From positions 157,123,922-157,187,921 of the forward strand of contig CM035843.1 in NCBI GenBank assembly GCA_020510985.1: DNA of 64,000 bases. Reading direction: 5' to 3'. The notes beneath the pieces are model-generated. The model searched no databases. It was not told where the DNA came from and worked only from the letters and a program-made list of their open reading frames with translations. Shown here piece by piece: positions 22,201-44,896 of this stretch. Source of the DNA: Pholidichthys leucotaenia. Its lineage: Eukaryota. The position numbers were made by a program, and so were the translations under genes. Each line of letters begins with the position of its first letter. The stretch's first letter is position 1.

Positions 22201-22469
22201 GCTTTATGTTTAATTTGAGTTTTACCAATATTTTGCTTTATCACTTTGGGATGCTTATACATTATATTTTTATTTACTTTGGAGGGAGCAGACAACGATT
22301 CTCTGATGGGGAAGACAGGGGCTAAGTTGAGGGGGTGGCGGATGAAGAGGAGCTGCAGAGAGGCGTGTAAGACTGCGACTCTGCTTCCTGGTCCCAACTC
22401 TGAGTAGTCACGGTTTTGGAAATTTGGATAAAAAAGATGCCAGATTGTTAGATAAATGAGAAGCACCAT
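19290..22469 (-). CDS. L2 ORF2: APE endonuclease plus reverse transcriptase, 1059 aa, uninterrupted
   Basis: Endonuclease '[33 protein letters not shown]'. RT '[17 protein letters not shown]', '[19 protein letters not shown]', 'CYADDTQLY'. C-terminal '[11 protein letters not shown]...[12 protein letters not shown]' block. Confidence 0.85.
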
Positions 22470-23163
22470 CCAAAGTGGGATGAATGCTGTCTCGTCTCAT
22501 AAGACCAGGTTTTCCCCAAAAAGAGCTCCAATTGTCAATGTAGCCCACGTCATTTTTAGGACACCACACAGACAGCCAGCGGTTCAAGGATGACGAGCGA
22601 CTAAACATGTCATCACTGGTCAGATTGGGGAGGGGCCCAGAGAATACTACAGTGGCAGACATCGTTTTTGCAAAGTCACACACCGATTCTACATTAAGTT
22701 TCGTGACTTCCGACTGCCGGAGACGGATGTCATTAATGCCGGCGTGAATAACAATTGTGGAATATTTACAGTTACTTTTAGCCAGCATTTTCAAATTTGA
22801 CTCGATGTCGCCTGCTCTGGCCCCAGGAATGCATGTGACTATGGCCGATGGAGTCTCTAGGTTCACGTTTCTGACTACAGAGTCGCCAATGATCAGAGTT
22901 TTTTCCTCAGCGGGTGTGTCGCTGAGCGGGGAAAAACGATTAGAAACGTGAACAGGTTGGTGGTGAACCGGGGCTTTGCGACTAGGCTTCCTTCTCACCG
23001 TCACCCACCCAGTCTCCTCGCTGCAGAGGAGAGCCGGGGAACCGGTGACAGGGGGACCTAAACTAGCTAGCTCCGCTGCAGCTAAGGGGCGTCCGTCGAG
23101 ATTAACTGGCGCAGACGGTGTTTCAATGCAGCGGAGCCGGGATTCCAAACGATGAAAACACAT
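22408..23163 (-). CDS. L2 ORF1 with SGNH/GDSL-type esterase domain, 251 aa
   Basis: '[11 protein letters not shown]' (GDS motif) and 'IHAGINDI' blocks, typical of CR1/L2-clade ORF1 esterases. May lack a few N-terminal residues. Confidence 0.65.
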
Positions 23164-23858
23164 CGGCAGAATTTGGACCAGAGGACCAGGGGCCTCATGT
23201 ACAAAGACTTGTGTGGATTTCCTACTGAAAGATGACGTACCTTTAAATCAAGAAAACACCATAAGCAAAAAAAAAAAAAATCTAGATGTATGAAACAGTG
23301 TGTACGCAGGAATCCAAGCACATTTCCTTTGTACATCCCAGTCTACTTGAAATTGAACGGCACGTGAGGAAATACCAGACTCCTCCCTTGACACGTCTCC
23401 ATTTAGATATGCAATTGGATGCAAATAGATACAGTTTCTCACAAAAGTGAGTACACTCCTCACATTTTTGTAAATATTTAATTATATCTTTTCATGGGAC
23501 AACACTGAAGATATGACACTTTGATACAATGTAGTCAGTGTACAGCTTGTATAACAGTGTAAATTTGCTGTCCCCTCAAATTAACTCACCACACAGCCAT
23601 TAATGTCTAAACCGCTGGCAACAAAAGTGAGTACACCCCTAAGTGAAAATGTCCAAATTGTGTCCAAAATGTCAATGTTTTGTGTGGTCAACATTATTTT
23701 CCAGCACTGCCTTAACTCCCTTGGGCATGGAGTTCACTAGAGCTTCACAGGTTGCCACTGGAATCCTCTTTCACTCCTCCATGATGACATCACGGAGCTG
23801 GTGGATGTTAGAGATCTTGCGCTCCCCCACCTTCCGTTTGAGGATGCCCAACAGATGC

Positions 23859-24479
23859 TCAATAGGGTTTAGGTCTTGAGACATGCTTGGCCAGTCCATC
23901 ACCTTTACCCTGTTTCTTTAGCAAGGCAGTGGTCGTTTTGGTGGTGTGTTTGGGTTCGTTATTGTGTTGGAATACTGCCCTGCGGCCCAGTGTCCAAAGG
24001 GAGGGGATCATGCTCTGCTTCAGTATGTCAGCGTACATGTTGACATTCATGGTTCCCTCAATGAACTGTAGCTCCCCAGTGCGGGCAGCACTCATGCAGC
24101 CCCAAACCATGACACTCCCACCACCATGCTTGACTGTAGGCAAGACACACTTGTCTTTGTACTCCTCACCTGGTTGCCGCAACACATGCTTGACACAATC
24201 TGAACCAAATAAGCTTATTTTGGTGTCATCAGACCACAGGACATGGTTCCAGTAATCCATGTCCTTAGTCTGCTCGTCTTCAGCAAACTGTTTGCAGTCT
24301 TTCTTGTGCATCATCTTTAAAAGGTGCTTCCTTCTGGGATGACAGCTATGCAGACCAATTTGATGCAGTGTGCTTCGTATGGTCTGAGCACTGACAGGCT
24401 GACCCCCCCCCCCCCCCCACACCCTTTCAACCTCTGCAGCAATGCTGGCAGCACTTATACATCTATTTTCAAAATACAA
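23859..24479 (-). pseudogene. Tc1 transposase, C-terminal 206 aa in frame; N-terminus frameshifted
   Basis: 'HVLWSDDTKISLFG', '[18 protein letters not shown]', 'FQHNNEPKHT'. Upstream helix-turn-helix part is in another frame (around 24500-24660). Confidence 0.75.
24400..24419. repeat. Poly-C homopolymer
   Basis: About 19 C in a row. Confidence 0.9.
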
Positions 24480-25077
24480 CCTCTGGATATGACGCTGAAC
24501 ACATGCACTCTACTTCTTTGGTCGACCATGGCGAGGCCTGTTCTGAGTGGAACCTGTCCTGTTAAACTGCTGTATGGTCTTGGCCACCGTGCTGTGGCTC
24601 AGTTTCAGGGTGCTGGCAATCTTCTTATAGCCTAGGCCATCTTTATGTAGAGCAACAATTCTTTTTTTTTTAGATCCTCAGAGAGTTATTTGCCATGAGG
24701 TGCCATATTGAACTTGACCAGCATTGGAGAGTGTGAGAGTGATAACACCAAATTTAACACACTTGCTCCCCATTCACACCTGAGACCTTGTAACACTGAC
24801 AAGTTACGTGATCCTGGGGAAGGTAAATGGCTAATTGGACAGAATTTGGACATTTTCACTTAGGGGTGTGCTCACTTTTGTTGCCAGCGGTTTAGTCATT
24901 AGTGACTGTGTGTTGAGTTATTTTGGGGGGACAGCAAATTTACACTGTAATACAAGCTGTACACTGACTACTTTACATTGTATCAAAGTGTCATATCTTC
25001 AGTGTTGTCCCATGAAAAGATATAACAAAATATATACAAAAATGTGAAGGGTGTACTCACTTTTGTGAGATACTGTA

Positions 25078-25208
25078 TATACAAGTGCTACACATTTGAT
25101 TCTCCTGTATCCACGATCAAAAATAATGGATTTAATGGAATTTCATGGACTTTGAGTTGGAGGTGCTCCTGAAGGAGGTAGAGGTGCTTAAAAACATCTT
25201 ATTTGAGG
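25078..25208 (-). repeat. Repeat R, distal copy, segment between the Tc1 and the L1 copy A insertion
   Basis: Reverse complement matches 490-620. Confidence 0.7.
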
Positions 25209-25361
25209 ACTTCTGGTTATGGCGGCCACGTAGGAAGACGTGTTTTGCCCTGCTCTGCTCCTAAAGATAAAAAGTCGGCAAATAACTCTCTCATTTGGAA
25301 CAAAGCCTATCCCAGCGTTTGGGCGAGGATATGCCGGTAAAGCCTAAGTCTGGGAAATCAG

Positions 25362-26219
25362 GTGGAGGGAAAAACTGAACCGCCGAAACAGTCCAAGTTA
25401 ACGGACTTTCACGTTCGTGATGGAGCAGAAAAATCTTCAGATATGGCGGAGCAAGCTAGTGGCGGAGCGGTGACTGCTGGCGACGGCACAGGTGCGGTGC
25501 TCGCTGCCATTAGCTCAATGAGAGCAGACTTTTCCGCTAAATTTGATGGGATTATAGCAGCGATAGAAGGAAAGAGAAAGGAAATAAGTGACTGTATGGA
25601 ACGAGTAACGCAGGTGGAGCTCCGAATTTCCAGCGTTGAGGATGACGTCACCAGCCTACAATTAAAGGTGCGCACATTGGAATTAAAAAATAAACGTCTG
25701 GAAGATAATGTCCTGGACTTAGAATCCCGGTCGAGATGGAACAACCTGAGGCTGGTGGGTCTCCCGGAGGGAACCGAGGGTCGGGACCCATGTTCCTTTT
25801 TGGAAAAGTGGATTCCAGAAGCGCTGAACAACGCGGAGCTGCAGTCATCAGTCGTTTTAGAGAGCGCCCATCGAATTGGCCCACCGAGAGATAATAAGGC
25901 ACCACCAAGGACGCTGATTATGAAGTTCCTCAGCTACAGAGACAAGATGACGATCTCCAACGCGGCGCGAGCCAAAGGAGAAATTAAATACCAGGATCAA
26001 CAGGTGCGGTTCTACCCAGATTTGGCCACAGGAATCCAACATTTAAGGAAACAGTTTGACCCCGCCCGTAAAGTGCTGCACAGCCTCGGGACTCCTCATG
26101 GAGTGATTCATCCTGCAAGATTGCTGGTCACATATAAGGGCAGAACTCACACCTTCAAGACCCCTGAGGAGGCGCAGGAGCTCATCAAGCAGATCCAAGA
26201 GGAGACTGGTGGGAGCTAA
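25362..26219 (+). CDS. L1 ORF1p, copy A (coiled coil, RRM, C-terminal domain), 285 aa, uninterrupted
   Basis: 'NNLRLVGLPEGTEGRDPCSFLEKWIPEAL...LESAHRIGPP...PRTLIMKFLSYRDKMTISNAARAKGEIKYQDQQVRFYPDLA...HPARLLVTYKGRTHTFKTPEEAQELIK' is the Transposase_22/L1 ORF1 architecture. Confidence 0.8.
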   Translation: MEGKTEPPKQSKLTDFHVRDGAEKSSDMAEQASGGAVTAGDGTGAVLAAISSMRADFSAKFDGIIAAIEGKRKEISDCMERVTQVELRISSVEDDVTSLQLKVRTLELKNKRLEDNVLDLESRSRWNNLRLVGLPEGTEGRDPCSFLEKWIPEALNNAELQSSVVLESAHRIGPPRDNKAPPRTLIMKFLSYRDKMTISNAARAKGEIKYQDQQVRFYPDLATGIQHLRKQFDPARKVLHSLGTPHGVIHPARLLVTYKGRTHTFKTPEEAQELIKQIQEETGGS

Positions 26220-26656
26220 GCATGAAGCATGAATAAAATATAAGGTAGAATATTTAAGCATTTGCACAGGCATCTGACTGCTCTGAAGCATATAGCAAGT
26301 TTACAAAATATAGATTGTATTATATATTAAAAAAAAACCTATGATGTACAAAGTTGCTATAAAATTTTGGAGTTAAGTTGGAAAAGTACAGAAGAGAGTT
26401 AATGTTACGTCATTAAAAGCAGTAGAGTCAGGGTGATTGAGAGGATAAAGAGGGAGTGGCTTTGGCTGGTCCTCGCGGGTGTGGAGCAGTCAATGGCTAT
26501 AGCGGGAGACAGAATTTTTTTTGATTTTGGGGGGATTACCACAAATGTGGGAAGGGGGAATTTGTTTGTGTGTAGTTTGTAGGATGAATGTTCAACCACT
26601 CATGTTTTTGCTTCTCTGTATGAAAATGTTTACATTGCAAGGTAATCTCAAACTCC

Positions 26657-29600
26657 TTGTTGATCATAGACCAAAGCGTTAATCTTAATTTAACTTCATG
26701 GAATTGCAGAGGTCTACAAAATTTAAAAAAACTTAAACAAGTTATGAATAAAATAAAAGACATAGGTTCAAAAATTGTGTTTTTACAAGAAACTCATCTA
26801 ATAGAGGAGGATGTAAAAAGAATTAGGAGAAGATGGCAAGGAAGTGTATTCACCTCATCATTTTCATCCCGAGCCAGGGAAGTTATGACTCTCATACATA
26901 AATCAATCCCATTTCAAGTGAAAAATGTAATTGGAGACAAATTTGGAAGATATCTAATCATTCAAGGATCTTTGTTATTAGAAAATATAAATCTGGTGAA
27001 CTTATACGGTCCCAATATAGATGATCAAAATTTCTTTGCTAATTTATTTCTTATTTTATCATCACTTACAGGGCAACATATAATAGCAGGGGATTTTAAT
27101 TGTGCATCGAATCCCAGTATAGATAGATCAACAGGACTGGACTGTACGCACAATGGATGCAGGATGATCATTAATCATTTTATGAAAGAATTGAGATTGC
27201 TAGATATATGGAGAGAAATGAAACCACAAGTTAAAACCTACTCTTGTTATTCTAATACCTACAAGACATTCTCACCTATTGACTATTTTTGATCTCCACA
27301 GAATTAAGGTCCAAGATTCAAAACTGCTTCTATGATAATATTGTGATCTCTGATCATGCACCCTGCTGTCTAATCTATGTAGATAAGAAATTGACAAAGG
27401 AACCAGGTAGGTGGCAATTTCAGCATAAATGGCTCAGGATGAGGAATTATGTTAAGTACATAGAAAAACAGATGAGTTTTTTTGATATCAGATACTACAC
27501 AAACATCTGCATGTATAAAGTGGGAGGCTTTCAAAGCTTTAATTGGGGGCCTATTATTAGTTATACAGGTTCAAAATCTAAGAAGACTCGAGAGGGAGAG
27601 AGGTCCAATTGGAACATAAAATCAAAATTCTTCAAGAAAAAGTGTATGCAGGAAGTGACCCAAAGTTAGAGAACGAATTACTGATTCTGAGATCTGAATC
27701 ATGTACAAAAAATCAGCGACTAGAGCTGCCTCGAGTCTTCTAAGATTGAAGCAATCTTTTTATGAACAAGGTGAAAAATCAGGAAAATTATTGGCATGAC
27801 AGATTAAACAATTAGAATTTAAAACACCAATTACCACTATTATAAGTAATGGACAGGCAGTTGTAGATCCTTTAGAAATTAATAGTGCCTTTAGAGATTA
27901 CTATGAAAAATTATATGATACAAAAAAATGAAAACTGACTTAACAAAACTAATGGGTTTTTAGACGGATTATCTATACCGTGAATCCTAATGAAAACAGG
28001 GAGACACTGAGTCTAAAAATTAGTCAAGAAGAAGTTGGGCTAGCCATTGATAATAATGAAATCAGGAAAAAGTGCAGGACCAGATGGTCTTCCAGTTGAC
28101 CTCTATAAAAAATTTAAGAATAAATTAATAAAACCATTTTTGGAAATGGTTTTAGAAGCATTTCAAAATAGTAATTTACCACCATACATGAATAATGCCC
28201 TTAATTATACTGTTGCCAAACAGAGTAAACCCTCTAATAATGTGAAAAATATGAGACCCAGTAAGTCTATTAAATGCTGACCTTAAGATAATCTGTAAAA
28301 TTTTGGCAAGACGACTACAAGAAATATTACCAAATATTATTAACCGAGATCAGAATGGCTTTATAAAGAGGGGTAGCACTGTCCTGGTAAGAAGTTACTT
28401 AAAGAATAGATATCAGTTTGTATGTGTTAAACAACAAAAACTCAGAGCTACTGAAGGTCACCTGTGGAGTCCCCACAGGGTTCAGTTTTGGGACCATTAT
28501 TATTCAATATGTATATAAACTGATATATGTAAAGTTTCAGAAAAATGGACTTAATATTGTTTGCTGATGACACTAACCTGCTATGCAGTGGAAACAACTT
28601 GGAACAACTTTCTGGATACCACTCGGAAAAGGAATTAGGAAAGCTGAAACTGTGGTTTGATTCGAACAAAATAACGCTCAATTTAAGCAAGACAAAATTT
28701 ATAGTCTTTAACAACCATCACAACTACCCAGTACCCCAAACTCAGTGTAAATGGTTGTAGAGATTGAAAGGGTATCCGAAACTAAATTCCTTGGAGTAAT
28801 AATTGATAACAAACTGTGTTGGAAGCCACATATTAATTTATAAAAGGTAAAGTATCCAAATCACTTGCAATATTACACAGAGTGAAAAATTTGCTGAATC
28901 AACCCACACTATACCACCTTGTATCAATCATTAATACTCCCATACATGACATTTTGTAATGAAGTATGGGGAAAACATATAAAAACAAACATATATCCCA
29001 CTCTTTAATGCTTCAAAGAGAGCTATTAGAATAATAAACAAAGCAGCTTACAGGGAACCAACAAACCCACTTTTTCTTAACAAAAAACTCTCAAGTTGAA
29101 AGATCTGATCGACTTTAAAACCGCAATAATAATGTTCAAAGTGAAGAATCTATCACTGCCCGCAAATATCCAAAGTTGTTCCAAACAAGGGAGAAACGAT
29201 ATCACTTCAGAGGAACATGGTATATTTCAAAAGCTACAGTGAGAACAACTACCCACAAGCAACATTGTATTTCAGTGCAAGGTGTTCACGATTATGGAAC
29301 GATTTTGGACCTGAATTAAAATCATGTACAAAGCTTGGACAATTTAAACAAAAACTAAAGGAAGAAATACTCCAAACATATTTACAAGACGACATGTAAA
29401 CTCACATAAGGATTGACATTTCAGCCTGTGTTGTGTTATAGCTTAGTTTTTCTTTTTTCTCTGTGACACTATGTCTTAGATTTGTTTTTGAATAGTAACC
29501 GCTTAACTTAGACTAGCTCAGTTTTCTTTTTCTCTCAGTCATATTTTGTCTTAGCCTTGTTTTAAATTGTAATCGCTCTTGTCTTGTTTTCCTCTTTTTT

Positions 29601-31685
29601 CTCCTTTGAATTCTTGGATGGAATATGGGTGGGCAATATAAGCTGCGGCTTCAGCCATCACCCATTTCGGATAACTCACGTGGAATTGTATAGTAGAAGG
29701 AGTCTTTGTCTAATTTGACCTTGTTGTTATATTATACAGTTTCTTTTAACCTGTAATGTACTATCCGAAATAAATTCATTCATTCATTCATTCATTTCAT
29801 TCATTCATCATAAAGGGAAGACAAGGCTTCCATAATGTAAGAAGACTATTTAATATTATCTATTCTAATAAAGAAGCACCGGATACAGCTCTCCTATCAT
29901 TGGACGCCGAAAAGGCCTTTGATAGGGTCGAATGGCCCTTCCTTTTTGAAGTCTTACAAAGGTTTGGACTTGGAAATAATTTCATAAAATGGGTTCAGAT
30001 AATATACAATAATGCTACAGCAGAAATCCTAACAAACAGCAATATTTCAAAATCAATAAATATCAATAGAGGATGTCGACAAGGCCTGTCCACTTTCACC
30101 TTTACTGTTTACTATGGCAATTGAACCTTTAGCGATGGCAGTACGTTTACATCCACAATTATATGGAATTAAAGTAGGACCAACAGAACATAAAATCTCC
30201 CTGTATGCTGACGACATAATTTTGTTTATGTCGAATCTTAAAAAAATCAATTCCGACCTTGTTGAATTTAATAAAGAATTTTGGGGAAATATCAGGATAT
30301 AAAATAAATAAAACTAAATCTTCAATATTAATGCTAAATGAGACCCAGAGAAATCACCCAGCTCCTGAGGTAAATCAATTCAATGTTGTAAATCAGTTTA
30401 AATATTTAGGAATTCAAATTGTGCCTAAGCTAGAATTAGTCGCCAGTGCCAATTATGAAGCCTTAATGACAGACATTAATGAGTTACTTCAGAGATGGAT
30501 GTCACTACCAATGTCGACGATTGGGAGAATCAATATACTTAAAAGTAATATCTTACCCAAAATACTTTATTCAATACATTCCTTTACCACCACCTTCAGA
30601 TCTATTCTCAAGAATTAAAAAAAAAGTTAGTGGAATTTATATGGAACAATAGGAAGGCTAGATTGCGTCTGTCCTTACTATATTTACCATTTGATCGTGG
30701 AGGTCTGAAATGTCCAAACTTTATGTTGTATTACTGGTCAGCACAACTGAGGTCTATGACATATTATTTTTCATCAAATGATCTCCCTCACTGGACTGAA
30801 ATGGAATCATACAATTTACCTTTACCTCTTCCCATATTCATATACTCAGACTCGGCAAAAAAATTACAGAAACAAGTTAAAAATCCATTTGTAAAGCATA
30901 TGATCAAATATGGGTGTGAAACCGAAAAATATTTATAAGAACCACACTTATTGTCACAATTTAGCCCAATATGGGGTAATCAATATTTTAAACCAGGGAA
31001 AGCGGATGCTGTGTTTAAAGTATGGAATTTAAAAGGGATTCAAAAGATTCAAGAGACTTATATCTGTCATGTTCAATAACATAATGTCTTTTTGAAGAAC
31101 TGAGGATCAAATTTAATCTTAATAGAACACATTTTTTTAAAATATCTTCAGCTTAGGAACTTTAGTCGATCAAATCAAAATAATGCTCTCATCCGACCTA
31201 CTTATTCATCCTTGGAAAAAATTTTGACGAAAGATAGTAAGAGAAAGGGTATTATTTCAGAGTTTTATAACTCAATTGACACTATCCTCAAGTGAAAACT
31301 CACAGAAAAGATTGAATTATTGGAAAGAAGACCTGCAAACTGAAATTTCAGAGGAACAATGGGAATTGGTTTGTACAGAAGCTCAAACCAAATCAATAAA
31401 TGTACGTCTTAAATTGATACATTTTAAATGGTTAATGTGGATATATGTTACACCGGTGGAGTTAAATAGATATAACAAAAACATACCAGATACATGCACA
31501 AAATGTATGGAAAGTAAAGGAACCTTATTTCATTGTTTATGGGAATGTAGAAAAATTAGAATGTTTTGGGAAGAGGTGAGGGTAACAATTGAAAAAATAA
31601 TTTCAAAACAAATCATGTTGAATCCTAAATTGTTTTTGTTGGGTCTGCATCCAGAAAAGCATAACTTTGATAAAAGTGAAAGAGC
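26657..31685 (+). pseudogene. L1 ORF2 of copy A (APE endonuclease plus RT), split by frameshifts and a nested LINE
   Basis: Endonuclease 'LTSWNCRGLQN...VFLQETHL...IAGDFNC...SDHAP' (26657-27400). RT start 'GPDGLPVDLYKKF...[12 protein letters not shown]' (28047-28330). RT resumes at 29813 '[10 protein letters not shown]...[14 protein letters not shown]...YADDIILF'. C-terminal cysteine domain 'CTKCMESKGTLFHCLWECRKIRMFW' (about 31490-31580). Confidence 0.8.
28373..29812 (+). mobile_element. CR1/Rex-like LINE 3' fragment nested inside the L1 copy A RT
   Basis: Splits the L1 RT between 'GFIK' and 'GRQGFHN'. That junction is uninterrupted in copy B (about 34895) and copy C (about 59725). Carries RT '[17 protein letters not shown]', 'ILFADDTNLLCSG', a 3'UTR and an (attc/tcat)n tail at 29776-29810. 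Flanking 'aaag' direct repeat. Confidence 0.75.
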
Positions 31686-34600
31686 GACTTCCGGTTATGG
31701 CTGCCACGTAGGACGGACGTGTCTCGCTCTGCTCTGCTCCTGGAAAAAAAAAAATCGGCAAATAACTCTCTCATTTGGGACAGAACGTATCCCAGCATTT
31801 GGGCGAGGATATGTCGGCGAAGCCTAAGGCTGGAAAACCAGGAAAAGGAAAAAGCGAGCCGCCGAAACAGTCCAAATTAACGGACTTTCAGGTCTGTGAC
31901 GCAGCAAACAAGGCTCCATATATGGCGGAGGAGGCTGGCGGCGGTGCGATTTCTGCGGGGAATGGCGCAGATGCGCTGATGGCTGCCATGAGTTCAATGA
32001 GAGCGGACTTTCCTCTAGATTTGATGGGATTATGACAGCGCTGGAAGGAATAAGAAAGGAATTGGGTGACTGTGTAGAACGAACGGCGCAGATGGAGCTC
32101 CGTCTCGCTTGTGCTGAAGATGACGTCACCCGTCTTCAATTAAAGGTGCGCACTTTGGAAAAAAAAAATAAATCTCTGGAAGATAATATTTTGGATTTGG
32201 AATCTCGGTCGAGACAGAATAATTTGAGGCTGGTGGGTCTTCCAGAGGAATCAGAAGGTCGGGACGTATGTTCCTTTCTGAAAAGTGGATTCCGGAGGTG
32301 CTGGGCAGCGAGGAGTTGCAATCAGCAGTGGTTCTGGAAAAAGCACATCGTATTGGCCCACGGAGAGATAAGGGACCGCCGAGGACCTTAATTATGAAGT
32401 TTCTTAGCAACAGAGACAGGATGAAGATCTTCAACGCTGCACGTGCTAAAGGAGAGATTAAACACCAGGACCAGCAGGTGCGGTTCTACCCAGATTTGGC
32501 CACAGGAATCCAGCAATTGAGGAAGCAGTTTGATCCCATACGTAAGGAGCTGCGCAACCTTGGGATTCGTCATGGTGTAATCTATCCTGCGAGACTGCTG
32601 ACCACGTATGAGGGCAGAACCCACATCTTCAAGACCCCAGAGGAGGCGCAGGAGTTCATCAAGAAGATCAAAGAAGAAGAAGAGACTGGTGGGAGCTAAG
32701 CATGAACAAAATATAAGGTAGAATAATTAAGCATTTGCACAGGCATCTGACTGACTTGAAGTAAATAGTAAGTTTACAAAATATAGATGTATTATATATT
32801 AAAAAAAAACAAAACAAAAACAAAACAAACAAAAAAAAAAACTATGATGTACAAAGTTGTTAAAAATTTAAAAAAAAAACTATGATGTACAAAGTTGTTA
32901 AAAATTTTGGAGTTAAGTTGGAAAACTACAGAGGAGAGTTAATGTTACGTCATTAAAAGCAGTAGAGTTAGGGTGATTGGGGAGGATGAAGAAGGAGTGG
33001 CTTAGGCTGTTCCCCGTGGGTGTGGAACGGTCGATGGCTATATCGGGAGACAGAATTTTTCTTTTGATTTTGGGGGGTTTGCCACAAGTGTGGGAAGGGG
33101 AAATTTGTTTGTGTGTAGTTTGTAGGATGAATGTTCAACCACTCATGTTTTTGCTTCTCTGTATGAGCATGTTTACACTGCAAGGTAATCCCAAACTCTC
33201 TATTGATCATGGACCAAAGTGTTAACCTTAATTTAACTTCATGGAATTGCAGAGGTCTACAAAATTTAAAAAACTTAAACAAGTTATGAATAAAATAAAG
33301 GACATGGGTTCAAGAATTGTGTTTTTACAAGAAACTCATCTGATAGAGGAGGATGTTAAAAGAATTAGGAGTAGATGGCAGGGAAGTGTATTCACCTCTT
33401 CATTTCATCCCGAGCCAGGGGAGTTATGACTCTCATACATAAATCAGTTCCTTTTCAAGTGAAAAATGTAATTGGAGACAAATTTGGAAGATATGTAATC
33501 ATTCAAGGTTCTTTGCTATTAGAAATATAAATCTTGTGAACTTATATGGTCCCAATATAGATGATCAGAAGTTCTTTGCTAATTTATTTCTCATCTTATC
33601 ATCACTTACAGGGCAACATATAATAGCAGGGGATTTAATTGTACATTGAATCCAGGTGTGGATAGATCAACAGGACTGGATTGTACGCACATTGGATGTA
33701 GGATGACTATTAATCATTTATGAAAGAATTGAGATTGTTAGATATATGGAGAGAAATGAAACCACAAGTTAAAGCCTATCTTGTTATTCCAGTACCTACA
33801 AGACATTCTCACGTATTGATTATTTTTTGATTTCCACAGAATTAAGGTCCAAGATTCAAAACTGCTTTTATGATAACATCGTGATCTCTGATCATGCACC
33901 CTGTTGTCTATATATGTAAGATAAAAAATTGACAAAGGAATCAGGTAGATGGCAATTTCAGCATAAATGGCTTCAGGATGAGGAATTTGTCAAGTATATA
34001 GAAAAACAGATAGACGAGTTCTTTGACATCAATACTACACAAACATCAGCATGTGTAAAGTGGGAGGCTTTCAAAGCTTTTATTAGGGGACATATTATTA
34101 GTTATACAGGATCAAAATCTAAGAAGACTCGAGAGGAGAGAGCTAAATTGGAACATAAAATAAAAAATCTTCAGGAAAAAGTGTATGCAGGAAGTGACCC
34201 AAGGTTGGAGAATGAATTACTGATTTTGAGAGCTGAATACGACAAAAAATCAGCGAATAGAGCTGGCCTCGAGTCTTCTAAGATTGAAACAATCTTTTTA
34301 TGAAACAAGGTGAAAAATCAGGAAAATTAATAGCATGGCAGATTTAAAACAATTGGAAATTAATACACCAATTACCAGTAGTATAAGTATGGACAGTAGT
34401 TATAGATCCTTTAGAAATTAATAGAGCCTTTAGAGATTACTATGAAAAATTATATGATACCAAAAATGAACTGATTTAACAAAACTAAATGGGTTTTGAA
34501 CGAACTATCTATACGTGTATTCCAACTGAAAACAGGGAGATATTGGAGTCTAAAATTAGTCAAGAAGAAGTTGGGCTAGCCATTGATAATAGAAATCAGA

Positions 34601-37220
34601 AAAAGTGCAGGACCAGATGGTCTTCCAGTTGACCTTTATAAAAAATTTAAGAATAAATTAATAAAAACCTTTTTTGGAAATGGTTTTAGAAGCATTTCAA
34701 AATAATAATTTACCATCATACAGAAATAATGCCTTAATTATACTGCTGCCAAAAACCAGGTAAGCCCTCTAATAAATGTGAAAATATGAGACCAATAAGC
34801 CTATTAAACGCCGACCTTAAGATAATCTGTAAAATTTTAGCAAGACGAATACAAAAATTTTACCAAATATTATTAATCGAGATCAGAATGGCTTTATAAA
34901 GGGTAGACAAGGCTTCCATAATGTAGAAGACTATTTAACTATATTTATTTTAATAAAGAAGCACCGGATACAGCTCTCCTATCATCGGGATGCCGAAAAG
35001 GCCTTTGATAGAGTTGAATGGCCCTTTCTTTGAAGTCTACAAGGTTTGGACTTGGAAATAATTTCATAAAATGGGTTCAAATACTATACAATAATGCTAC
35101 AGCAGAAATCCTAACAAATAACAATATTTCAAAACAATAAAAATCATAGAGGATGTCGACAAGGCTGTCAACTTTCACCTTTACTGTTTACTATGGCAAT
35201 TGAACCTTAGCGATAGCGATACGTTTACATTCACAAATATAGGAATTAAAGTTGACCAACAGAACATAAAATCTCCCTGTACGCCGATGACATTAATTTT
35301 GTTTATGTCGAATCTAAAAAAATCAATTCCAACCTTGTTGAATTTAATAAAGAATTTTGGGGAAATATCAGGATATAAAATAAATAAAACTAAATCTTCA
35401 ATATTAATGCTAAATGAGACCCAGAGAAATTACCCAGCCCTGAGGTAAATCAATTCAATGTTGTAAATCAGTTTAAATATTTAGGAATCCAAATTATGCC
35501 TAAGCTAGACTCAGTCGCCAGTGTCACTATGAAGCCTTAATGTCAGATATCAAGAGTTAACTCAGAGATGGATGTCACTACCAATGTCGATGATCGGGAG
35601 AATCAATATACTTAAAAGTAATATTTTACCTAAAATACTTTATTTATTTCAATACATTCCCTTATCACCACCCTTAGATCTATTCTCAAGAATAAAAAAA
35701 GTTAGTGGAATTTATATGGAACAACAGGAGGGCTAGATACGTTTGTCTTTATTATATTTACCATTTGATCGTGGAGGTCTGAAATGTCCAAATTTTATGT
35801 TGTATTATTGGTCGGCACAACTGAGGTCTATGACATATTATTTTTCATCAAATGATCTCCCTCACTGGACTGAAATGGAATCATACAATTTACCTTTACC
35901 TCTTCCCATATTCATATACTCAGATTCGGCAAAAAAATTACAAAAACAAGTTAAAAATCCATTTGTAAAGCCTATGATCAAAATATGGTGTGAAGCTAAA
36001 AACTATTTAAAAGAACCACAGTTATTGTCACAATTTAGTCCAATATGGGGTAACTCAATATTTTAAACCAGGGAGAGCGGACGCTGTATTTAAAGTATGG
36101 AATTTAAAAGGGATACAAAAGATTCAGGATTTAATTGCCATGTGCAGACAACATAATGTCTTTTGAAGAGCTGAGGATCAAATTTAATCTCAATAGAACA
36201 CATTTTTTTAAATATCTTCAACTTAGAAACTTTATTCGATCAAATCAAAATAAAGCTCTCACTCGACCTATTTATTCATCCTTGGAAAAAATGATGATGA
36301 AAGATAGTAAAGAAAGGGTATTATTTCAGAGTTTTATAACTCACTGACACTATCTTCAAGTGAAAATTCACTGAAAAGATTAAACTACTGGAAAGAAGAT
36401 CTGCAAATTGAAATTTCAGAGGAACAATGGGAATTGGCTTGTACAGAAGCTCAAACCAAATCAATAAATGCAACGCCTTAAATTGATACATTTCAAATGG
36501 TTAATGACGGATGTATGTTACACCGGAGGAGTTAAATAGATATAACAAAAATATACCAGATACATGCACAAAATGCATGGAAAGTAAAGGAACCCTATTT
36601 CATTGTTTATGGGAATGTAGATTAATAAGAATGTTTTGGGAAGAGGTGAGGGTAACAATTGAAAAATAATCTCAAAACAAATCATATGAATCCTAAACTG
36701 TTTTTGTTGGGTCTGTACCCAGAAAAGCATAATTTAATAAAAGTGAAAGAACATTCATAGACCTCAGTTTGCTTAATGCCAAAAAATGTATTGCACTATT
36801 ATGGAAAAAGACTCATAGACCAGATGTGACTCAGTGGTTAAGACAGATGTTAACAAAACCTTCCATTAGAAAGAATAACATATATACTAAAATCAAAGGA
36901 AATTGTGTTTGAGAATATATGGAGACCTTTTATTGATTATGTAAAAAATTAAACATAACCCTCTGAAGAAGAAGGTGAATGATGTGTGTGGACCTTGTAA
37001 ATTCAAACTGGTGAACATAATATGTATACTTATGTATTGGATTGTCTAACCTAAACAGAGGAGCCATTGTTGAAGACTTGACTTTGTTGAGTGGTTGTTG
37101 GTGTTTTTAGTGCATTTTTTTTTTTTATTTGTAGTACTTTAGTGTTAGTGTTTGATTGTTTGTATCATGTTTGTTTAAAAAAAAAAAAAAGGTTCAATAA
37201 AGATATGTGGAAAAAAAAAA
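31686..37220 (+). mobile_element. L1-clade LINE copy B, full length but decayed, nested in the 3' region of copy A
   Basis: 10-bp target-site duplication 'gtgaaagagc' at 31676-31685 and 37221-37230. 5' start 'gacttccggttatggctgcc'. Poly-A at 37185-37220. ORF1 (31775-32699) has 2 frameshifts; ORF2 (33241-about 36960) is in many fragments. Confidence 0.8.
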
Positions 37221-38368
37221 GTGAAAGAGCATTCATAGACCCTCAGTTTGCTTAATGCCAAAAAATGTATTGCACTATTATGGAAAAAGACTCATACGAC
37301 CAGATGTGACTCAGTGATTAAGACAGATGTTAACAAACCTTCCACTCGAAAGAATAACATACATACTGAAATCAAAGGAAATTGTGTTTGAGAATATATG
37401 GAGACCTTTCATTGATTATGTAAAGAATTTAAACATAACTTTTGAAGAAGAAGGTGAATGATGTGTGTGGACCTTGTAAATTCCAAACTGGTGAATGTAT
37501 AAGACTCAGAAAGGATTTATTGCCAAGTACATTAAACAGTAAACAACTGATAACATAGGGGGATTGACTTGACACAGAAAACGACCAGCATTACCGGTGA
37601 CGTGGCAGCCATCTGAAAAACGCGCCTGTCATCAGATGGGTACAGGATGCATAGGGAAGAAGGATAACACAATAGGAAAGAGCCAAAAACCATTGATTGT
37701 CAGAATACCGGTCATATATGATCAATATTATGATTACAAGAAAAAAAGCCCTCAATGCACAATTAGCAGACAAGAATGTACACAAAGACACAAAGGGAGC
37801 AGTGAGTGAATGATCTTTTTCATCAGTATATTTGAGTTCAGTGTGGGTGTAAGTGTTGAGTGTAGGTGTTTTTTGTATCAGTTAAGAACAACAAAGTCTC
37901 TTTGGCAGGAGATGTTTTGTCTTAGCGGCTGGCATTTGTCCTTGAGCCATGCAGCTGGCTGTCCGTAGAGTCAATGGAGCTCGAATGTTTTGGAAACAAA
38001 AAACTGCGATAATCTGGAGGACTTGTGTGAGGGGGGTCAGATTAGTCGAATAGTACTGATCCAGAGAAGAAGACTTAATATTCTCTTACAGAATCAGTAC
38101 TATTGTAGTAATATGTAATACCTTATGTAATGGATTGCCTAGACTAACCAGAGGAGCAGGTTCAGTACTATGTAGTAATAAGTATACTTATGTAATGGAT
38201 TGCCTAGACTAAACAGAGGAGGCATTGTTGAAGACCTGTTCTTGTTAGTGGTTGTTGGTGTCTTTAGTACTTTTTTTTTTTAAATTACTTTAGTGTTAGT
38301 GTTTGATTGTTTGTGTTATGTTTGTTAAAAAAAAAAAGGTTCAATAAAAAATATTGTGGGAAAAAAAC
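37221..38368 (+). mobile_element. L1 copy A, 3' part (ORF2 C-terminus, 3'UTR, poly-A), containing an unclassified about 580-bp insert
   Basis: Starts exactly at 'gtgaaagagcattcatagacc', where copy A was interrupted at 31685. 3'UTR end 'ggttcaataaaaaatattgtgggaaaaaaa' at 38340-38368, then the target-site duplication. Confidence 0.75.
37510..38090. other. Unclassified insert or rearrangement inside the copy A 3'UTR
   Basis: Homology to the other copies' 3'UTR breaks after 'ggtgaatgtataa' and resumes at 'tatgtaatggattgcctagac' with a local tandem duplication. No similarity to anything else in the window. Confidence 0.4.
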
Positions 38369-38880
38369 CACCCATCTTATTTGGCACGCTGTGCTCCGGC
38401 ATTAGCCCCGGGTTACAGGTAATACATAGCCTGCTCACCAGCCCTGAAAGATTAGTTTACTGTTTTCCTTTATTTCAGACAGGGATGAGAAGGAGATGTT
38501 TATTTTAGCTTGACATGTTTTGACTGATGTCTGCAGTCATCCTCAGAAGCGTCAGCTGATCACTGTGATTTGTGACCAGCCGGGTGGTGATTAGCTGTTG
38601 AAATAAAGGAACCAACAGTCATGAAAAAGACGATACAAACCTATTTAGTAGGTAGCCACGGTCACCTGTCAGTTAAAAGCAGATCATATTAGACTTGACA
38701 AGTACATATTTTATGTCCAAAATGCAAATCTCATCCTTTATAATTATATACAACTTACATGGATTACACACTAAATGCACTAATTATACACTAAAGAATG
38801 AAGTTGCACCGGGGGACACGGTGAGGCTGTTGCATTTCAAACTTTATGCATGTGTTTATTGACATAACTACTGTACACAC
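38369..38880 (-). repeat. Repeat R, distal copy, main segment
   Basis: Reverse complement of 13-about 480 at about 90-98% identity. Confidence 0.75.
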
Positions 38881-39379
38881 GGAGACAGTTGGGGGCGTGG
38901 TAGAATGCTGTGAAACTGTTGCTTAATCAGCAAAAAAAGGAAGTCATTTACTCAAACCACTGACTTATAATGAAGCCTTGAAGACAGGGTGATATTTGGG
39001 GGCGCACAGGCACATTGCGCATGAGGTAGGTTATTATTAGGACAATTACATGAATTTACTCACCAAGAAGCCACCCATCCACACAGTGCCAGCTTGTAGT
39101 TTGTTCCCAACAATGCTGTTCATCAGAATCATTGGGAAAACCGGCTCTCGCTGCAAATTGTGCTTTGATGTTGGCCTGTTCAACTGCATTGTATTCGAAT
39201 ATGATGTACCTGGGTGACAGTCGGATAATGCCATCCCACACAGCTAGCATAGCTCAGCTCAGGATTGACTGGGAAATTCTTGATTGGTCTGCCAGCTCCC
39301 TCTGGCATGCCCCTGTTACCAGGAACCCCGTTATTGTCAGCACCTGCACTGCGACAGGCAGCACTCGGCTTCTCACCAT

Positions 39380-39660: not shown

Positions 39661-40140
39661 AATCTTCTGTCTTTAAATACCCTTTCTCTTCTCATTGCGC
39701 GATTTGCAATATCGTCTAATAATGCTAATGTGGGCGACACACATTGTGGGCTCACGTTTCCACAGAGACAGGACTGCATGTGTATTGAGGGTGTCACGTC
39801 TGCAAGGACAAAGAACTCGAATCCGCAGAAGATAACAAGGAGGTGTGAGATTTGTCTCTTTGTCCCACAGAAGATGCCCCGGAGAGATTTCCGGTTCATC
39901 AGGAAATGAGAGACAATGGTGAAGATTCAAAGGGATGCTTTGTGACTGTATGTTTACTGAAAACACCATGTGACTTGAATTCTGATGCTGGAAACATATA
40001 AAAGGGTGATGAGATATGATTCTTTCTCTTTCCTGCTTTGAGAATGCTAGAAGCTGTGTTCTGTCAATAAAGCTGGTTTACGACTAAACTCAGCCTCATC
40101 ATTTGAGCACATCTTCTACACTGGTGACCTACGACGAGAA

Positions 40141-40905
40141 ATGAGCAGACAGAATTCTCCCGAGCAGGGCTCGGCGGAAGCCAGCCTGATGGCCGCCTCC
40201 ACGATCCGGCTGCCTGATTTCTGGCAGCACAGCCCGCGCTCATGGTTTAGCGCAGTCGAGGCGCAGTTCAACCTCCGGAGAATCTCCAACGACGACACAA
40301 GATTCTACCATGTGGTAGCGAAGCTGGACAGCAACACGGTCTAGAGAGTGGAGGATCTGGTTAATCATCCACCAGACAGCGACAAGTACAGCGCATTGAA
40401 GGACGCGCTGATCAGCCATTTCACCCCTTCAGTCCAACAACGAGCAGAGGGACTCCTGACGTTGACGGAGTCAGAAAATGATAGACCTGCGGACCTGATG
40501 GTGAAGATGCTGAAGCTCAAAGACTCTGAAGATGGCGAATTCATTTTCGCCCACCTTTTCCTTCGTACCCTGCCGCCAGCAGTGAGAGTGGCCCTGGCAG
40601 AGTCGCCCCGATTGGCCAGGCGAGACTACCATGGGTTGAGCAAAGAGGCGCAGCGGTTGGTCGACGCCCACAAGCGGAACGCAGTTTCGGCCGCGGCGGC
40701 TAGCCCAGGAACGTCATCCGGAGACAGTGCAGGTCCAGCGGCCGCGGCGCCAGACGCACCAAGGACGGCGGCGACGGGAGCCAGACGACGCGGAGCGGAG
40801 GACGGCCCGTGCTTCTACCACCGCCGTTTTGCAGAGAGAGCGCACAGGTGCGTGTCACCGTGCAACTTTAAGCGCCAGGGAAACGCCAAGACCGAGGGCC
40901 GGTAG
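40141..40905 (+). pseudogene. gag of copy 2, interrupted by an in-frame stop and a frameshift before the protease
   Basis: 'LPDFWQHSPRSWFSAVEAQFNLRRI' then stop at 40345, then 'EDLVNHPPDSDKYSAL...CFYHRRFAERAHRCVSPC', then stop at 40903. Protease 'DTGSQ' lies in another frame. Confidence 0.75.
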
Positions 40906-40976
40906 CAGCTGCGACCCTCGGCAACGAGAACAGGCTGCTTTACCTGACGGATGCACGCTCGGGGAAACAGTTCCTC

Positions 40977-43900: not shown

Positions 43901-44114
43901 CAGGCTCAAACCCGCCTTTGTTTTGGCTGACGAGGAAGTGCAGCTCGCGAGGCCCCCCCGCCGTGGCAGGCCGCCGAGAAGACATTCTCCAAAATCTTCA
44001 CAGAAAGGTGCTAACAGCTTTAATCCACAGGCGCATAGAGATGTTGCAGGTGCAGCCAAGCCAGGCTGCAGCAGATTCGGCAGAAAGTTAAAACCTAGGC
44101 AGTTGGTGGATTGA
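40977..44114 (+). CDS. pol polyprotein of copy 2 (protease, RT, RNase H, integrase), 1045 aa, uninterrupted
   Basis: Protease 'MDTGSQLSF'. RT 'PFVFVYLDDILVAS'. RNase H 'TTDASDVAVGAVVEQ'. Integrase 'HSLAHPG...CVACQRAK...DLVGLLP...DRGPQFISELW...AYNPQANGLCERFH'. Confidence 0.85.
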   Translation: MDTGSQLSFVTLTYAEWLMPSKAPWVSVSAANGSTIKTFGERTMLLSLQGRSFEWTFIVAAVSFNMLGADFLCSHGLLVDLANRRLINALSFHSIPCTARVAPPTAHASVSAAGGKFHTLLAQFPALTVPTFSATVAKHGVEHFITTTGPPVFAKARRLDPAKLAIAREEFTNLEKLGIVRRSKSSWASPLHMVPKADGSWRPCGDFRRLNNVSAHDRYPIPHIQDFSVHLAGARIFSKIDLVRGYHQVPVRAQDVPKTAVITPFGLFEFLRMPFGLKGAAQTFQRMMDAVLRDLPFVFVYLDDILVASTSEAEHEKHLTAVFRRLAEHGLIVNPAKCQFGVAQIDFLGHRVSAEGAVPLPNKVRAITDFPQPQTVKALREFLGMVNFYNRFLPSAARLMQPLYTALKKQKPANKVEWSPERERAFAQVKSALANAVLLAHPVPTARMALTTDASDVAVGAVVEQFVAGTWQLLAFFSRTLRDSERKYSAFDRELLALHLAIRHFQFWLEGRRFTAFVDHKPLTFAMAKISEPWSGRQQRQLAAILEFTTDIQHVAGKHNVVADCLSRAVAPPTPVGADSVAVAAGPGSDAGARAAPVCVGLDYAAMAAEQVNDADVRALQSGPTGLRLEHREQQSGMPPLICDVSMGRPRPVVPAAWRRRVFDLVHSLAHPGVRASIKLVGEKFVWPRLRKQVKEWAAACVACQRAKIHRHTKAPLEPFHIPAKRFDHVHVDLVGLLPLSHGHTHLLTMVDRTTRWPEAIPLTSTTAEEVARAFLAAWVARFGVPSDIMSDRGPQFISELWSSMARSLGVKIHRTTAYNPQANGLCERFHRSLKAALRASLTDTNWVDKLPWVLLGLRSAPKEDLHASPAELVFAQPVRLPGEFLPDNPAPNGPPAQPWQSDSGANTLPGPVHHSLPHVFVPKALKNAEFIFVKHDAQRPSLRPFYDGPFRVLETGQKHFLLDLGGRRELICINRLKPAFVLADEEVQLARPPRRGRPPRRHSPKSSQKGANSFNPQAHRDVAGAAKPGCSRFGRKLKPRQLVD

Positions 44115-44896
44115 TTAGCGATGTATGGAGTGTTTTGTGTTTTTCTTTTTTCTATGCCGTGCAGGTCTTGCCCTTACTAGACGTTTGGGGGGGGGTAGTG
44201 TGGGCGACACACATTGTGGGCTCACGTTTCCACAGAGACGGGACTGCATGTGTATTGAGGGTGTCACGTCTGCAAGGACAAAGAACTCGAATCCGCAGAA
44301 GATAACAAGGAGGTGTGAGATTTGTCTCTTTGTCCCACAGAAGATGCCCCGGAGAGATTTCCGGTTCATCAGGAAATGAGAGACAATGGTGAAGATTCAA
44401 AGGGATGCTTTGTGACTGTATGTTTACTGAAAACACCATGTGACTTGAATTCTGATGCTGGAAACATATAAAAGGGTGATGAGATATGATTCTTTCTCTT
44501 TCCTGCTTTGAGAATGCTAGAAGCTGTGTTCTGTCAATAAAGCTGGTTTACGACTAAACTCAGCCTCATCATTTGAGCACATCTTCTACACTAACGCCAT
44601 TATTATTATTAGAGACATTTTCTGCACTTCTTTGCACTTGCTTTTATAGCCACTCATCTAATTGCACACACTTGGATGTTTGTTTATCATGTGTCTCTGG
44701 TTTGTGCAATCATTTTCATGTCATTATCAGTCTCCCAACATCACCTCTAAGTGTCGTCAGTGGACCAATAACAGTAGAAACGTACGTACACCAGCCATGA
44801 AGTTGACGTGCAGCTGCGCATATTTCCATGGTCATTTCATTCTTGACACATCTGAAATTTTCCGTGGAAAAGGACATATGCCATATTTTTGTGCGT

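Follow-up and report, generated by a model that had tools for sequence, protein, structure and literature searches.

The window analysed here, a stretch of 64,000 nucleotides from Pholidichthys leucotaenia (GCA_020510985.1, contig CM035843.1), contains a 13-kb block of repeats in which two L1 elements of the same orientation (A and B), a probable CR1-group LINE fragment and an unclassified segment of ~600 bp lie between two parts of a repeat, R. The listed parts of the block total exactly 13,189 bp. An uninterrupted L1 copy, C, served as the alignment reference from which element boundaries were set, independently of the flanking repeat strings. The features are summarized in Table 1.

Table 1. 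Features of the nested block and of the comparison copies in the window (TSD, target-site duplication; a slash marks the nick site)
Feature	Coordinates	Strand	Remarks
R1, second copy of R, opposite orientation	1-621	+	One HSP, R1 1-621 to 38891…25076, across the reconstructed junction
Tc1-like DNA transposon splitting proximal R	23427-25080
TSD of L1 A, 5′ copy, CATCTTATTTG	25195-25205	+	Preceded by CTT/AAAAA, an L1-endonuclease-type site
L1 A segment 1: 5′ UTR, ORF1, ORF2 endonuclease, N-terminal half of RT	25206-28368	+	92% identical to C 56557-59728, 86% to B
5′-truncated CR1-group LINE fragment (probable), 1,441 bp, sense orientation	28369-29809	+	82% identical to 50639-49270 (minus strand)
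L1 A segment 2: remaining RT and ORF2 C-terminal region to ~70 codons before the stop	29816-31685	+	94.5% identical to C 59723-61605
L1 B, full-length, 5,535 bp, same orientation as A	31686-37220	+	Single HSP with C (3-5533 to 4-5520)
TSD of L1 B, 3′ copy, GTGAAAGAGC	37221-37230	+	String check, MAFFT, chance test
L1 A segment 3: final ORF2 codons (stop 37459-37461) and start of 3′ UTR	37231-37502	+	95% identical to C 61591-61877; translation
Unclassified ~600-bp segment in 3′ UTR of A	37503-38103	.	Absent from B and C, unique in the window
Tandem duplication, 65 bp × 1.9, 92% identical	38094-38221	+	Spans the right junction of the ~600-bp segment
L1 A segment 4: remaining 3′ UTR, AATAAA, A7 tail, 5-nt CCACC filler	38170-38372	+	84% identical to C 61870-62077
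TSD of L1 A, 3′ copy, CATCTTATTTG	38373-38383	+
Repeat R, distal part	38384-38891	-	Proximal parts 25081-25205 and 23186-23426
L1 C, uninterrupted full-length reference copy	56558-62077	+	Self-BLAST, junction inspection

The three L1 copies start within 2 nt of the same 5′ nucleotide and carry AATAAA ~25 nt before tails of A7 to A10. Pfam searches with the consensus ORF2 identified Exo_endo_phos (1.9e-7) and RVT_1 (1.3e-42), that is, an N-terminal APE and an RT. Among PDB entries, the consensus RT was closest to human LINE-1 ORF2p (E = 1.7e-92), the next-best match being R2 (~1e-30), and ORF1 matched residues 104-300 of human LINE-1 ORF1p (2ykp, E = 7e-15). Because the Pfam Transposase_22 match of ORF1 stayed below the gathering score (18.2 vs 22.4 bits), support for an ORF1 of the L1 type, which is defined by a coiled coil, an RRM and a CTD, is drawn chiefly from the PDB hit. 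The C-terminal part of ORF2 contains a Cys-His motif, CX2CX8HX4C (consensus C-TK-C-MESKGTLF-H-CLWE-C); the corresponding motif of human L1 ORF2 is CX3CX7HX4C. The TSDs of A, B and C measure 11, 10-14 and 16 bp, at the sites CTT/AAAAA, GAT/AAAA and ATT/AGAAAA, respectively; that of C is AGAAAACCCTTGTGCA, at 56542-57 and 62078-93. Judged by ORF2, ORF1, the 3′ end with its TSD, and the Cys-His motif, all of which agree, A, B and C belong to the L1 (LINE-1) clade. They resemble vertebrate L1 in an ORF1 homologous to human ORF1p, in an APE and RT nearest to those of human ORF2p, in AATAAA followed by a short A-tail, in the Cys-His motif, in TSDs of 10-16 bp and in TT/AAAA-like nick sites; they differ from it in being 5.5 kb long rather than ~6 kb, and all three are dead. 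B represents a different subfamily from A and C, its 5′ 1 kb being only ~80% identical to both. The coexistence of two diverged L1 subfamilies in the window is in line with fish genomes, which hold many concurrent non-LTR lineages (PMC3381678). In three protein searches, the closest database proteins were all from teleosts (percomorphs and others); these matches were only 60-73% identical, so the L1 family is absent from the protein collections searched.

At the outer level of the block, the string check placed CATCTTATTTG as an 11-bp direct repeat exactly where the original prediction had located the TSD of A. The left TSD copies of both A and B directly precede the common L1 5′ terminus (…GACTTC[C/T]GGTTATGGC…), and the right copies directly follow a short A-tail with AATAAA before it. 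At the 3′ junction of A, the filler CCACC (5 nt) lies between the A7 tail and the TSD; this is atypical and counts against the explanation favoured below. On C, A aligned in four collinear pieces (25206-28368, 29810-31685, 37217-37502 and 38170-38367; self-BLAST), with overlaps in C-coordinates of 6, 15 and 8 nt at its three breaks. These short overlaps equal the duplications and thus support nesting. With the inserts removed, the reconstructed A was 5,508 bp long and gave a single HSP with C (2-5503 to 1-5520) and likewise with B. The continuity of ORF2 expected after deletion of B and the CR1-group fragment was recovered, the frame being restored across both junctions (…NRDQNGFIK/GRQGFHN… in the RT and …EKHNFDKSER/AFID… at the junction of B). 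When the whole block was removed, R gave one HSP with R1 across the junction, and R1 contains the 11-mer once, in diverged form, as CATTTTGCTTG. R1 is a paralogous empty site for A and, at ~625-640, also for the Tc1-like element. The exact coordinates and the rejoining of R against R1 both bear out the claim that A was inserted into R with an 11-bp duplication.

The inner duplication, GTGAAAGAGC, was also found exactly as predicted, as a 10-bp direct repeat at 31676-31685, where it terminates segment 2 of A, and at 37221-37230. If the ambiguous A-run (the preceding AAAA) is counted, the duplication extends to 14 bp (AAAAGTGAAAGAGC). The insertion site of B, GAT/AAAA, lies ~70 codons before the ORF2 stop of A, and B ends in AATAAA and an A10 tail (37211-37220). 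In MAFFT alignments, the homologous ORF2 site of B reads GTGAAAGAAC and that of C GTGAAAAGAGC, each with a single decamer, and the remainder of A resumes exactly at the duplicated decamer, as proposed for an insertion of B into the 3′ region of A. Of 20,000 random position pairs sampled in the window, allowing a slop of ±5 nt at either end, 11 (0.055%) showed direct repeats of ≥10 bp, five showed repeats of ≥11 bp and two showed repeats of ≥14 bp. Both repeats are situated at element boundaries, with a chance expectation <0.1%, which contradicts their dismissal as chance matches positioned elsewhere.

A CR1-like LINE had been predicted within the RT of A. Its location and nesting were upheld; its ends had been given as 28373 and 29812 and were corrected to those in Table 1, and the name holds at group level only. 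In the fragment, the C-terminal RT half (…FADDTNLL…) is followed by a 3′ UTR and, at 29774-29808, by an (ATTC)8.5 tail (TRF). A 6-bp TSD, ATAAAG (28363-28368 and 29810-29815), flanks the fragment and is present once each in B and C (MAFFT). The left end of the fragment falls inside the RT of its paralogue, and the right end is a LINE 3′ terminus that the two share, both ending in TATCCGAAA(A)TAAA…(ATTC)n; the tail of the paralogue is (ATTC)5, and the paralogue (to ~51341) is itself truncated or decayed upstream. Whether an element has an esterase ORF1 distinguishes CR1/L2 from Rex1; the present copy is cut off inside the RT. The RT of the fragment is 37% identical (E = 6e-47) to that of an esterase-ORF1 CR1/L2-type LINE in the window, compared with 26% to L1 RT, and in PDB it matched L1 and R2 equally weakly (~1e-15), with no solved-structure relative. 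The CR1 group includes CR1, L2, Rex1 and others, and within it a poly-A 3′ end is unique to Zenon (PMC13343379); the 3′ end of the fragment is a short tandem repeat rather than poly-A. With its microsatellite tail, 5′ truncation, short TSD and an RT nearer to that of the esterase-ORF1 CR1/L2-type LINE than to that of L1, the inserted LINE resembles members of the CR1 group, from which it differs in consisting of the 3′ 1.4 kb only. We therefore place it, on these features, as a likely CR1-group element at group level only. An attempt to name the clade (CR1 proper, L2 or Rex1) went no further than the group, as the names attached to its database relatives are generic or "jockey" and PDB contains no structural relative.

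The tail of A is further interrupted by 667 bp at 37503-38169, which the original prediction had missed. At the borders of the ~600-bp segment that makes up most of this interruption, 8 bp of L1 sequence (ATGTATAA) are imperfectly duplicated. As the 65-bp tandem duplication spans the right junction of the segment, that tandem duplication would have arisen after the insertion. A 23-nt inverted repeat is located near the right end of the segment (38038-60 / 38093-115). We found no Pfam match on its longest ORF, no TIRs, no tail and no homologue in the window. A SINE, a tRNA-derived or a known RNA element was rejected, as Rfam at E ≤ 1 returned only a chance IRES match and no tRNA was detected; an inverted L1 5′ end, suggested by the 13-mer ACGTGGCAGCCAT, was discarded because local alignment scores against the 5′ end of each L1 copy (A, B, C) did not exceed shuffle level. 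Instead of an insertion, the segment could be a 3′-UTR variant of the source element of A or the product of a local rearrangement. L1 3′ UTRs differ among subfamilies and B and C are the only comparators here, the bounding duplication is imperfect and the segment has neither a tail nor TIRs nor a homologue in the window, while the adjacent 65-bp duplication and the inverted repeat suggest local instability. However, on either side of the segment A and C otherwise show 94-95% identity, and ATGTATAA is L1 sequence on both flanks. We consider such a variant or rearrangement possible, though rather unlikely.

Taken together, the block very probably represents successive TPRT events at one locus, A into R, and then B, the CR1-group fragment and the ~600-bp segment into A. 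The boundaries, the duplications, the collinearity, the frame restoration and the empty-site paralogues are observed. TPRT would be the mechanism judging from its hallmarks, that is, a poly-A or microsatellite tail, a TSD, an A/T-rich nick site and 5′ truncation; the assembly and the polarity of the insertions are supported by internal evidence and by paralogues. According to this scheme, a full-length L1 (A, 5.5 kb, + strand) would have integrated into a pre-existing R at CTT/AAAAA, duplicating 11 bp of R. Later, a 5′-truncated copy of a CR1-group LINE with an (ATTC)n tail would have entered the RT-coding region of A with a 6-bp TSD, a second full-length L1 of the other subfamily (B) would have landed near the end of ORF2 at GAT/AAAA with a TSD of 10-14 bp, and ~600 bp of DNA would have entered the 3′ UTR of A, followed by the 65-bp tandem duplication across its right edge. 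The original description of three nested levels with every TSD readable holds for the TSDs of A and B; it gave no TSD for the CR1-like LINE and did not list the ~600-bp insertion, with its imperfect 8-bp duplication, or the 65-bp duplication. Likewise, of the full chronology that it had announced, the sequence from R to A to the inserts stands. Nesting yields a partial order only, R before A and A before B, the CR1-group fragment and the ~600-bp segment (the last before the 65-bp duplication); it does not rank the three second-level events relative to one another. The locus behaves like other nested retroelement clusters, in which the younger element interrupts the older, excision restores collinearity and the TSD consists of host-element sequence. 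This logic has been automated in REANNOTATE (PMC2672092) and TE-greedy-nester (PMC7755421) and applied to the chronology of SINEs and LINEs (PMC3403934). With regard to relative dating, the present case does not differ in kind from such clusters, except that a single locus gives a partial order and the decay counts depart from that order.

Private frameshifts numbered 19 in A, 42 in B and 38 in C, and in-frame stops four, four and seven, respectively. B is heavily decayed, with more private frameshifts than its host element A, contrary to the expectation that the inner element is the younger. A and C carry an equal substitution load yet differ twofold in indels, which indicates that the indel clock is over-dispersed; we attribute the frameshift excess of B over A to this over-dispersion, and the structural evidence is not weakened by it. 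Dating B against A by lesions was abandoned, as the frameshifts contradict the nesting order and the neutral part of the changes in B, estimated by a codon-position partition, ranges from 45 to 176 depending on the assumed strength of selection. Lesion counts are no usable clock here. Of the three consensus frameshifts, two are homopolymer indels of independent origin, B being intact at both sites, and one, in an A8/A9 run at consensus position ~3965, is common to A, B and C; a single shared frameshift is too weak to serve as proof of a defective master.

Three other origins of the arrangement were weighed against nesting. Repeats are very dense in this region, where 37 kb contain three L1 copies of 87-94% identity, and repeats might have been joined chimerically so that the nest would be absent from the genome. 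Mis-joins fall at homologous positions, however, whereas here L1 position ~5035 joins L1 position 1 and poly-A joins ~5026, and a perfect duplication of 10-14 bp of host sequence encloses both joins. Moreover, A and B are only 88-90% identical and thus easy to separate, and the intact ORFs of 1068 and 1080 aa elsewhere in the window point to good base-level quality; an assembly artefact is highly improbable. Even less credible is a tandem L1 dimer that arose through segmental duplication or unequal recombination, in which the short repeats would be a coincidence, in spite of the presence of two same-orientation full-length L1s 6.5 kb apart. Recombination would be expected to leave a hybrid whose parts meet at homologous positions, or else two whole units with flank between them, but the last 1.1 kb of A lies beyond B, resuming exactly at the duplicated decamer, and the outer 11-bp TSD pairs the 5′ end of A with the distal 3′ end. 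With the differing subfamilies of A and B and the low chance expectation for the boundary repeats, this agrees with the earlier view that the apparent dimer reflects nesting rather than recombination.

B, the CR1-group fragment or both could also have resided in the progenitor of A already, at another locus, a composite RNA then being copied into R as a unit; the nesting would in that case not have taken place here. Internal TSDs would be copied along with such an RNA, L1 poly-A signals are leaky, and B is not less decayed than A. Against this, the transcript would have to read through the AATAAA and A10 of B and exceed 11 kb, and trans-complementation would be needed because B truncates ORF2 of A; further, the window contains no second composite copy, B and C are free of the inserts, and the lesion excess of B over A would not be accounted for. 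A composite retrotransposition seems very doubtful, and successive insertion remains the preferred reading.

R is directly continuous, on the minus strand, with the sequence upstream of ORF1 in the CR1/L2-type LINE mentioned above (body 23185-18822). The ORFs of this LINE are fully open, and its 4-kb coding body (esterase ORF1 and a 1068-aa ORF2) is lesion-free. If the body were as old as A, ~20 lesions would be expected; none was seen. A search for a TSD of this LINE found none. Outside the window, protein identity to its nearest relatives does not exceed 68%, and the similarity to a related fish contig covers ORF1, ORF2 and the 3′ end and nothing upstream. CpG depletion does not discriminate whether R is the 5′ UTR of this LINE. 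If it is, the body would have been renewed after A arrived, either by long-tract gene conversion or by the homology-mediated chimeric integration of a new cDNA onto an older copy; alternatively, the L1 copies would have been defective already at integration, trans-mobilised as dead L1s. We regard such a reading as improbable. Dead-on-arrival L1s, if real, would also fit the frameshift excess of B over A and the frameshift common to the three copies. The lesion-free LINE body beside an old, insertion-riddled upstream region is the only item of some wider interest.

Nested TE insertion is already known, and the present locus is a biologically ordinary, textbook case; A, B and C are now dead pseudo-elements, and their arrangement has no evident function. 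The finding matters little beyond annotation, where it offers a worked example of a 13-kb repeat tangle solved from internal evidence alone. The apparent L1 "dimer" needs defragmenting before it is counted or dated, and the lesion counts caution that single copies are poor clocks. For TE annotation, an L1 family absent from the protein collections searched is represented in the window by three full-length copies with its exact termini, and a probable CR1-group family by its 3′ terminus.

The 11-bp CATCTTATTTG and the 10-bp GTGAAAGAGC, which the original prediction had placed at the ends of two nested L1 elements, the older A and the full-length B inside it, are present exactly where it put them. 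Both left copies abut the start motif …GACTTC[C/T]GGTTATGGC[G/T]GCCACGTAGGA…, and both right copies come after AATAAA and a short A-run. As a control, 20,000 pairs of positions were drawn at random from this window with ±5 nt freedom at either end: direct repeats reached ≥10 bp in 11 pairs, ≥11 bp in 5 and ≥14 bp in 2. The repeats at the A and B boundaries are not due to chance. A 5-nt non-A filler, CCACC, separates the A7 tail from the target-site duplication (TSD) at the 3' junction of A (38361-38372), and one or two extra nucleotides (AG or G) precede the shared 5' terminus in A and C (25206-25207 in A).

BLAST comparison of the block (25195-38383) with the window identified this third L1, C, which is uninterrupted and has its own 16-bp duplication, AGAAAACCCTTGTGCA, on both flanks. 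A is collinear with C in four pieces, overlapping in C coordinates by the duplicated target sequences (6, 15 and 8 nt), while B matches C in one HSP across its full length. After removal of three interruptions and one copy per duplication, A measures 5,508 bp and gives single HSPs with C (2-5503 to 1-5520) and B (3-5503 to 1-5533); the parts of the block add up to exactly 13,189 bp. Since the 5' ends of A, B and C fall within 2 nt of one nucleotide, B is indeed full-length. By sequence identity, B belongs to a different L1 subfamily from A and C (~80% to both in the first 1 kb, ~92% elsewhere; A and C share 94%). A perfect tandem duplication lies beside an A-rich tract in the ORF1-ORF2 spacer region of B.

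Positions of the nested elements and other repeats in the window
Feature	Position	Strand	Remarks
A, piece 1	25206-28368		C 56557-59728
A, piece 2	29810-31685		C 59723-61605
A, piece 3	37217-37502		C 61591-61877
A, piece 4	38170-38367		C 61870-62077
B	31686-37220		
C	56558-62077		
Direct repeats of A	25195-25205; 38373-38383		11 bp
Direct repeats of B	31676-31685; 37221-37230		10 bp
Tandem duplication in B	32832-32907		38 bp × 2
Non-L1 insert in A	28369-29809	as A	
Paralogue of insert	~51341-49271	minus	
600-bp segment in A	37503-38103		
Tandem duplication in A	38094-38221		65 bp × 1.9, 92%
Tc1-like DNA transposon	23427-25080		~245-bp TIRs, 91.5% identical; TA duplication; broken transposase (HTH_Tnp_Tc3_2)
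CR1/L2-type LINE, apparently intact	18822-23247	minus	
GDSL-esterase ORF1 of LINE	ATG ~23163 to 22411	minus	Pfam 36.7 bits
APE+RT ORF2 of LINE	22496-19293	minus	1068 aa, uninterrupted
Small retroposon in R1	~629-958		~330 bp; inverted partial copy 1549-1687
GC-rich elements	12133-17020; 39726-44592		~55% GC; second with 1080-aa open frame (40872-44111)
Common 230-bp block	17437-17663; 44949-45174		~350-420 bp past each GC-rich element
AT-rich arrays	2746-5815; 8706-9176	both	units 65-78% identical
Tc1/mariner-type element	6508-8141		~220-bp inverted repeats, 95% identical; 371-aa open frame 6789-7901
Third copy of its repeat	63791-64000		right window edge

In a multiple alignment of the B site, the decamer is single in B (GTGAAAGAAC) and in C (GTGAAAAGAGC), and is therefore native ORF2 sequence duplicated in A. 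The restored junction translates as …EKHNFDKSER|AFID…, with an A-private 1-nt insertion breaking the frame 9 nt beyond. At the non-L1 insert, ATAAAG is present once in B and once in C, and deletion of 28369-29815 leaves 60 unbroken codons of the A RT frame across the site. ORF2 continuity, as anticipated, is restored over both junctions. The outer host of A is a repeat, R, with a second copy (R1, 1-621) in opposite orientation; when 25206-38383 is deleted, R1 aligns straight through the junction in one 642-nt HSP (86% identity), and its single 11-mer reads CATTTTGCTTG. These junction tests and the three paralogous empty sites confirm the observation and its interpretation (A in R; B and the non-L1 LINE in A).

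In an assembly chimera or a product of unequal recombination, the joined L1 copies would meet at homologous positions. In this block, L1 position ~5035 meets position 1 and the poly-A tail returns to ~5026, the joins carry perfect host-derived duplications, and A and B are only 88-90% identical. The non-homologous joins and host-derived duplications support nesting, not recombination, as the origin of the apparent L1 dimer; retrotransposition of a pre-formed A+B composite as a unit would be unparsimonious.

The combined evidence gives good support for placing A, B and C in the L1 clade. Their three-copy majority consensus encodes ORF1 (310 aa) and ORF2 (~1,250 aa), the latter with Pfam APE endonuclease and RVT_1 domains. 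Among solved structures, its RT matches human LINE-1 ORF2p (E = 1.7e-92), followed by R2 proteins (~1e-30), and its ORF1 matches human LINE-1 ORF1p (E = 7e-15). A Cys-His motif, AATAAA with an A-tail, TSDs of 10-16 bp and the target sites CTT|AAAAA, GAT|AAAA and ATT|AGAAAA complete the picture. In protein searches, every closest database match was a teleost protein, with identities of only 60-73%, which points to a ray-finned fish outside those collections as the source of the window.

Of an RT, the non-L1 insert encodes the C-terminal half (…FADDTNLL…); its sequence terminates in (ATTC)8.5. It is a LINE copy truncated at the 5' end but with an authentic 3' terminus and a TSD of 6 bp, since a longer paralogue shares the terminus TATCCGAAA(A)TAAA…(ATTC)n and the first bases of the insert align within the paralogue's RT. 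The insert's RT shares 37% identity (E = 6e-47) with that of a LINE with a GDSL-esterase ORF1 in the same window and only 26% with the L1 RT. Within the CR1 group, esterase ORF1s are restricted to CR1 and L2, and the group, Zenon excepted, has no poly-A tails (PMC13343379). The label "CR1-like" thus appears right at group level and does not reach a clade.

A third interruption, missing from the original prediction, starts 41 nt past the ORF2 stop. This ~600-bp segment has no counterpart in B, C or the rest of the window, and is imperfectly flanked on either side by the L1 sequence ATGTATAA. No tail, TIRs, tRNA, Rfam signal or protein domain was found in it, and the idea that it is related to an inverted L1 5' end was discarded. 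Candidate explanations are a UTR variant, a local rearrangement and a mobile element of unknown type. A 65-bp tandem duplication crosses its right edge and is therefore younger.

Of the full chronology claimed, the order R, A, second-level inserts stands, and the second-level events are unordered among themselves: R -> A -> {CR1-group fragment, B, 600-bp segment -> 65-bp duplication}. By private frameshifting indels in ORF1+ORF2 (A 19, B 42, C 38, distributed evenly along the elements) and in-frame stops (4, 4 and 7), the younger B looks more decayed than its host. A and C differ twofold in indels despite equal loads of private coding substitutions (124 and 130; synonymous fractions 0.30 and 0.32, neutral expectation 0.28), and the substitution-based neutral component of B varies from 45 to 176 with the assumed selection strength. 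Two of the three frameshifts left in the consensus are independent homopolymer indels. The third, in an A8/A9 run at consensus ~3965 (A ~30030, B ~35110, C ~59930 region), is common to all three copies: judged against intact homologues (…LFSRIKKK|LVEFIWNN…), it is a +1 offset, with A9 in A and C and A7 within a 3-nt-shorter context in B. The hypermutable homopolymer could have slipped in parallel, or the offset may already have been present in the source elements. The indel clock is over-dispersed, and the decay counts neither confirm nor seriously threaten the age corollary of nesting.

On the minus strand, R runs on directly, past a Tc1-like transposon, into the sequence that precedes ORF1 in a CR1/L2-type LINE. 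R1 (~625-640) is the exact empty site of this transposon (GCAAATAGA-TA-TATACAAG). The 3' end of the LINE is conserved and carries a (TGAAT)n tail that stops at 18822, and the 4-kb body has no disabling mutations, against ~20 expected at the lesion density of A. This lesion-free body adjoins a repeat holding an old Tc1-like element and a decayed L1 nest, a mismatch in age. R may not belong to this LINE copy; alternatively, the LINE body may have been renewed at a later time, or the L1s may already have been defective when they inserted. CpG depletion does not discriminate among these explanations. Searches for a TSD and a close external relative of the LINE found none, and a related fish contig showed no similarity upstream of it. 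R1 also holds a small retroposon (A15 tail, 8-bp TSD ATTTGCAT), probably a SINE or short L1-mobilised element, within ~10 bp of the position of the Tc1-like element in R.

Elsewhere in the window, two GC-rich elements, 78% identical to each other and each bounded by ~400-bp direct repeats (99.5% identical), look like young LTR-type retroelements; a common block follows each. The AT-rich arrays consist of diverged, satellite-like tandem or inverted repeats, and a Tc1/mariner-type element has a third copy of its repeat.

Chronology from nested insertions is routine and automated (PMC2672092, PMC7755421, PMC3403934), and fish genomes are noted for many concurrent non-LTR lineages (PMC3381678). 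The nested block is a correctly read case of a very common, already known phenomenon.
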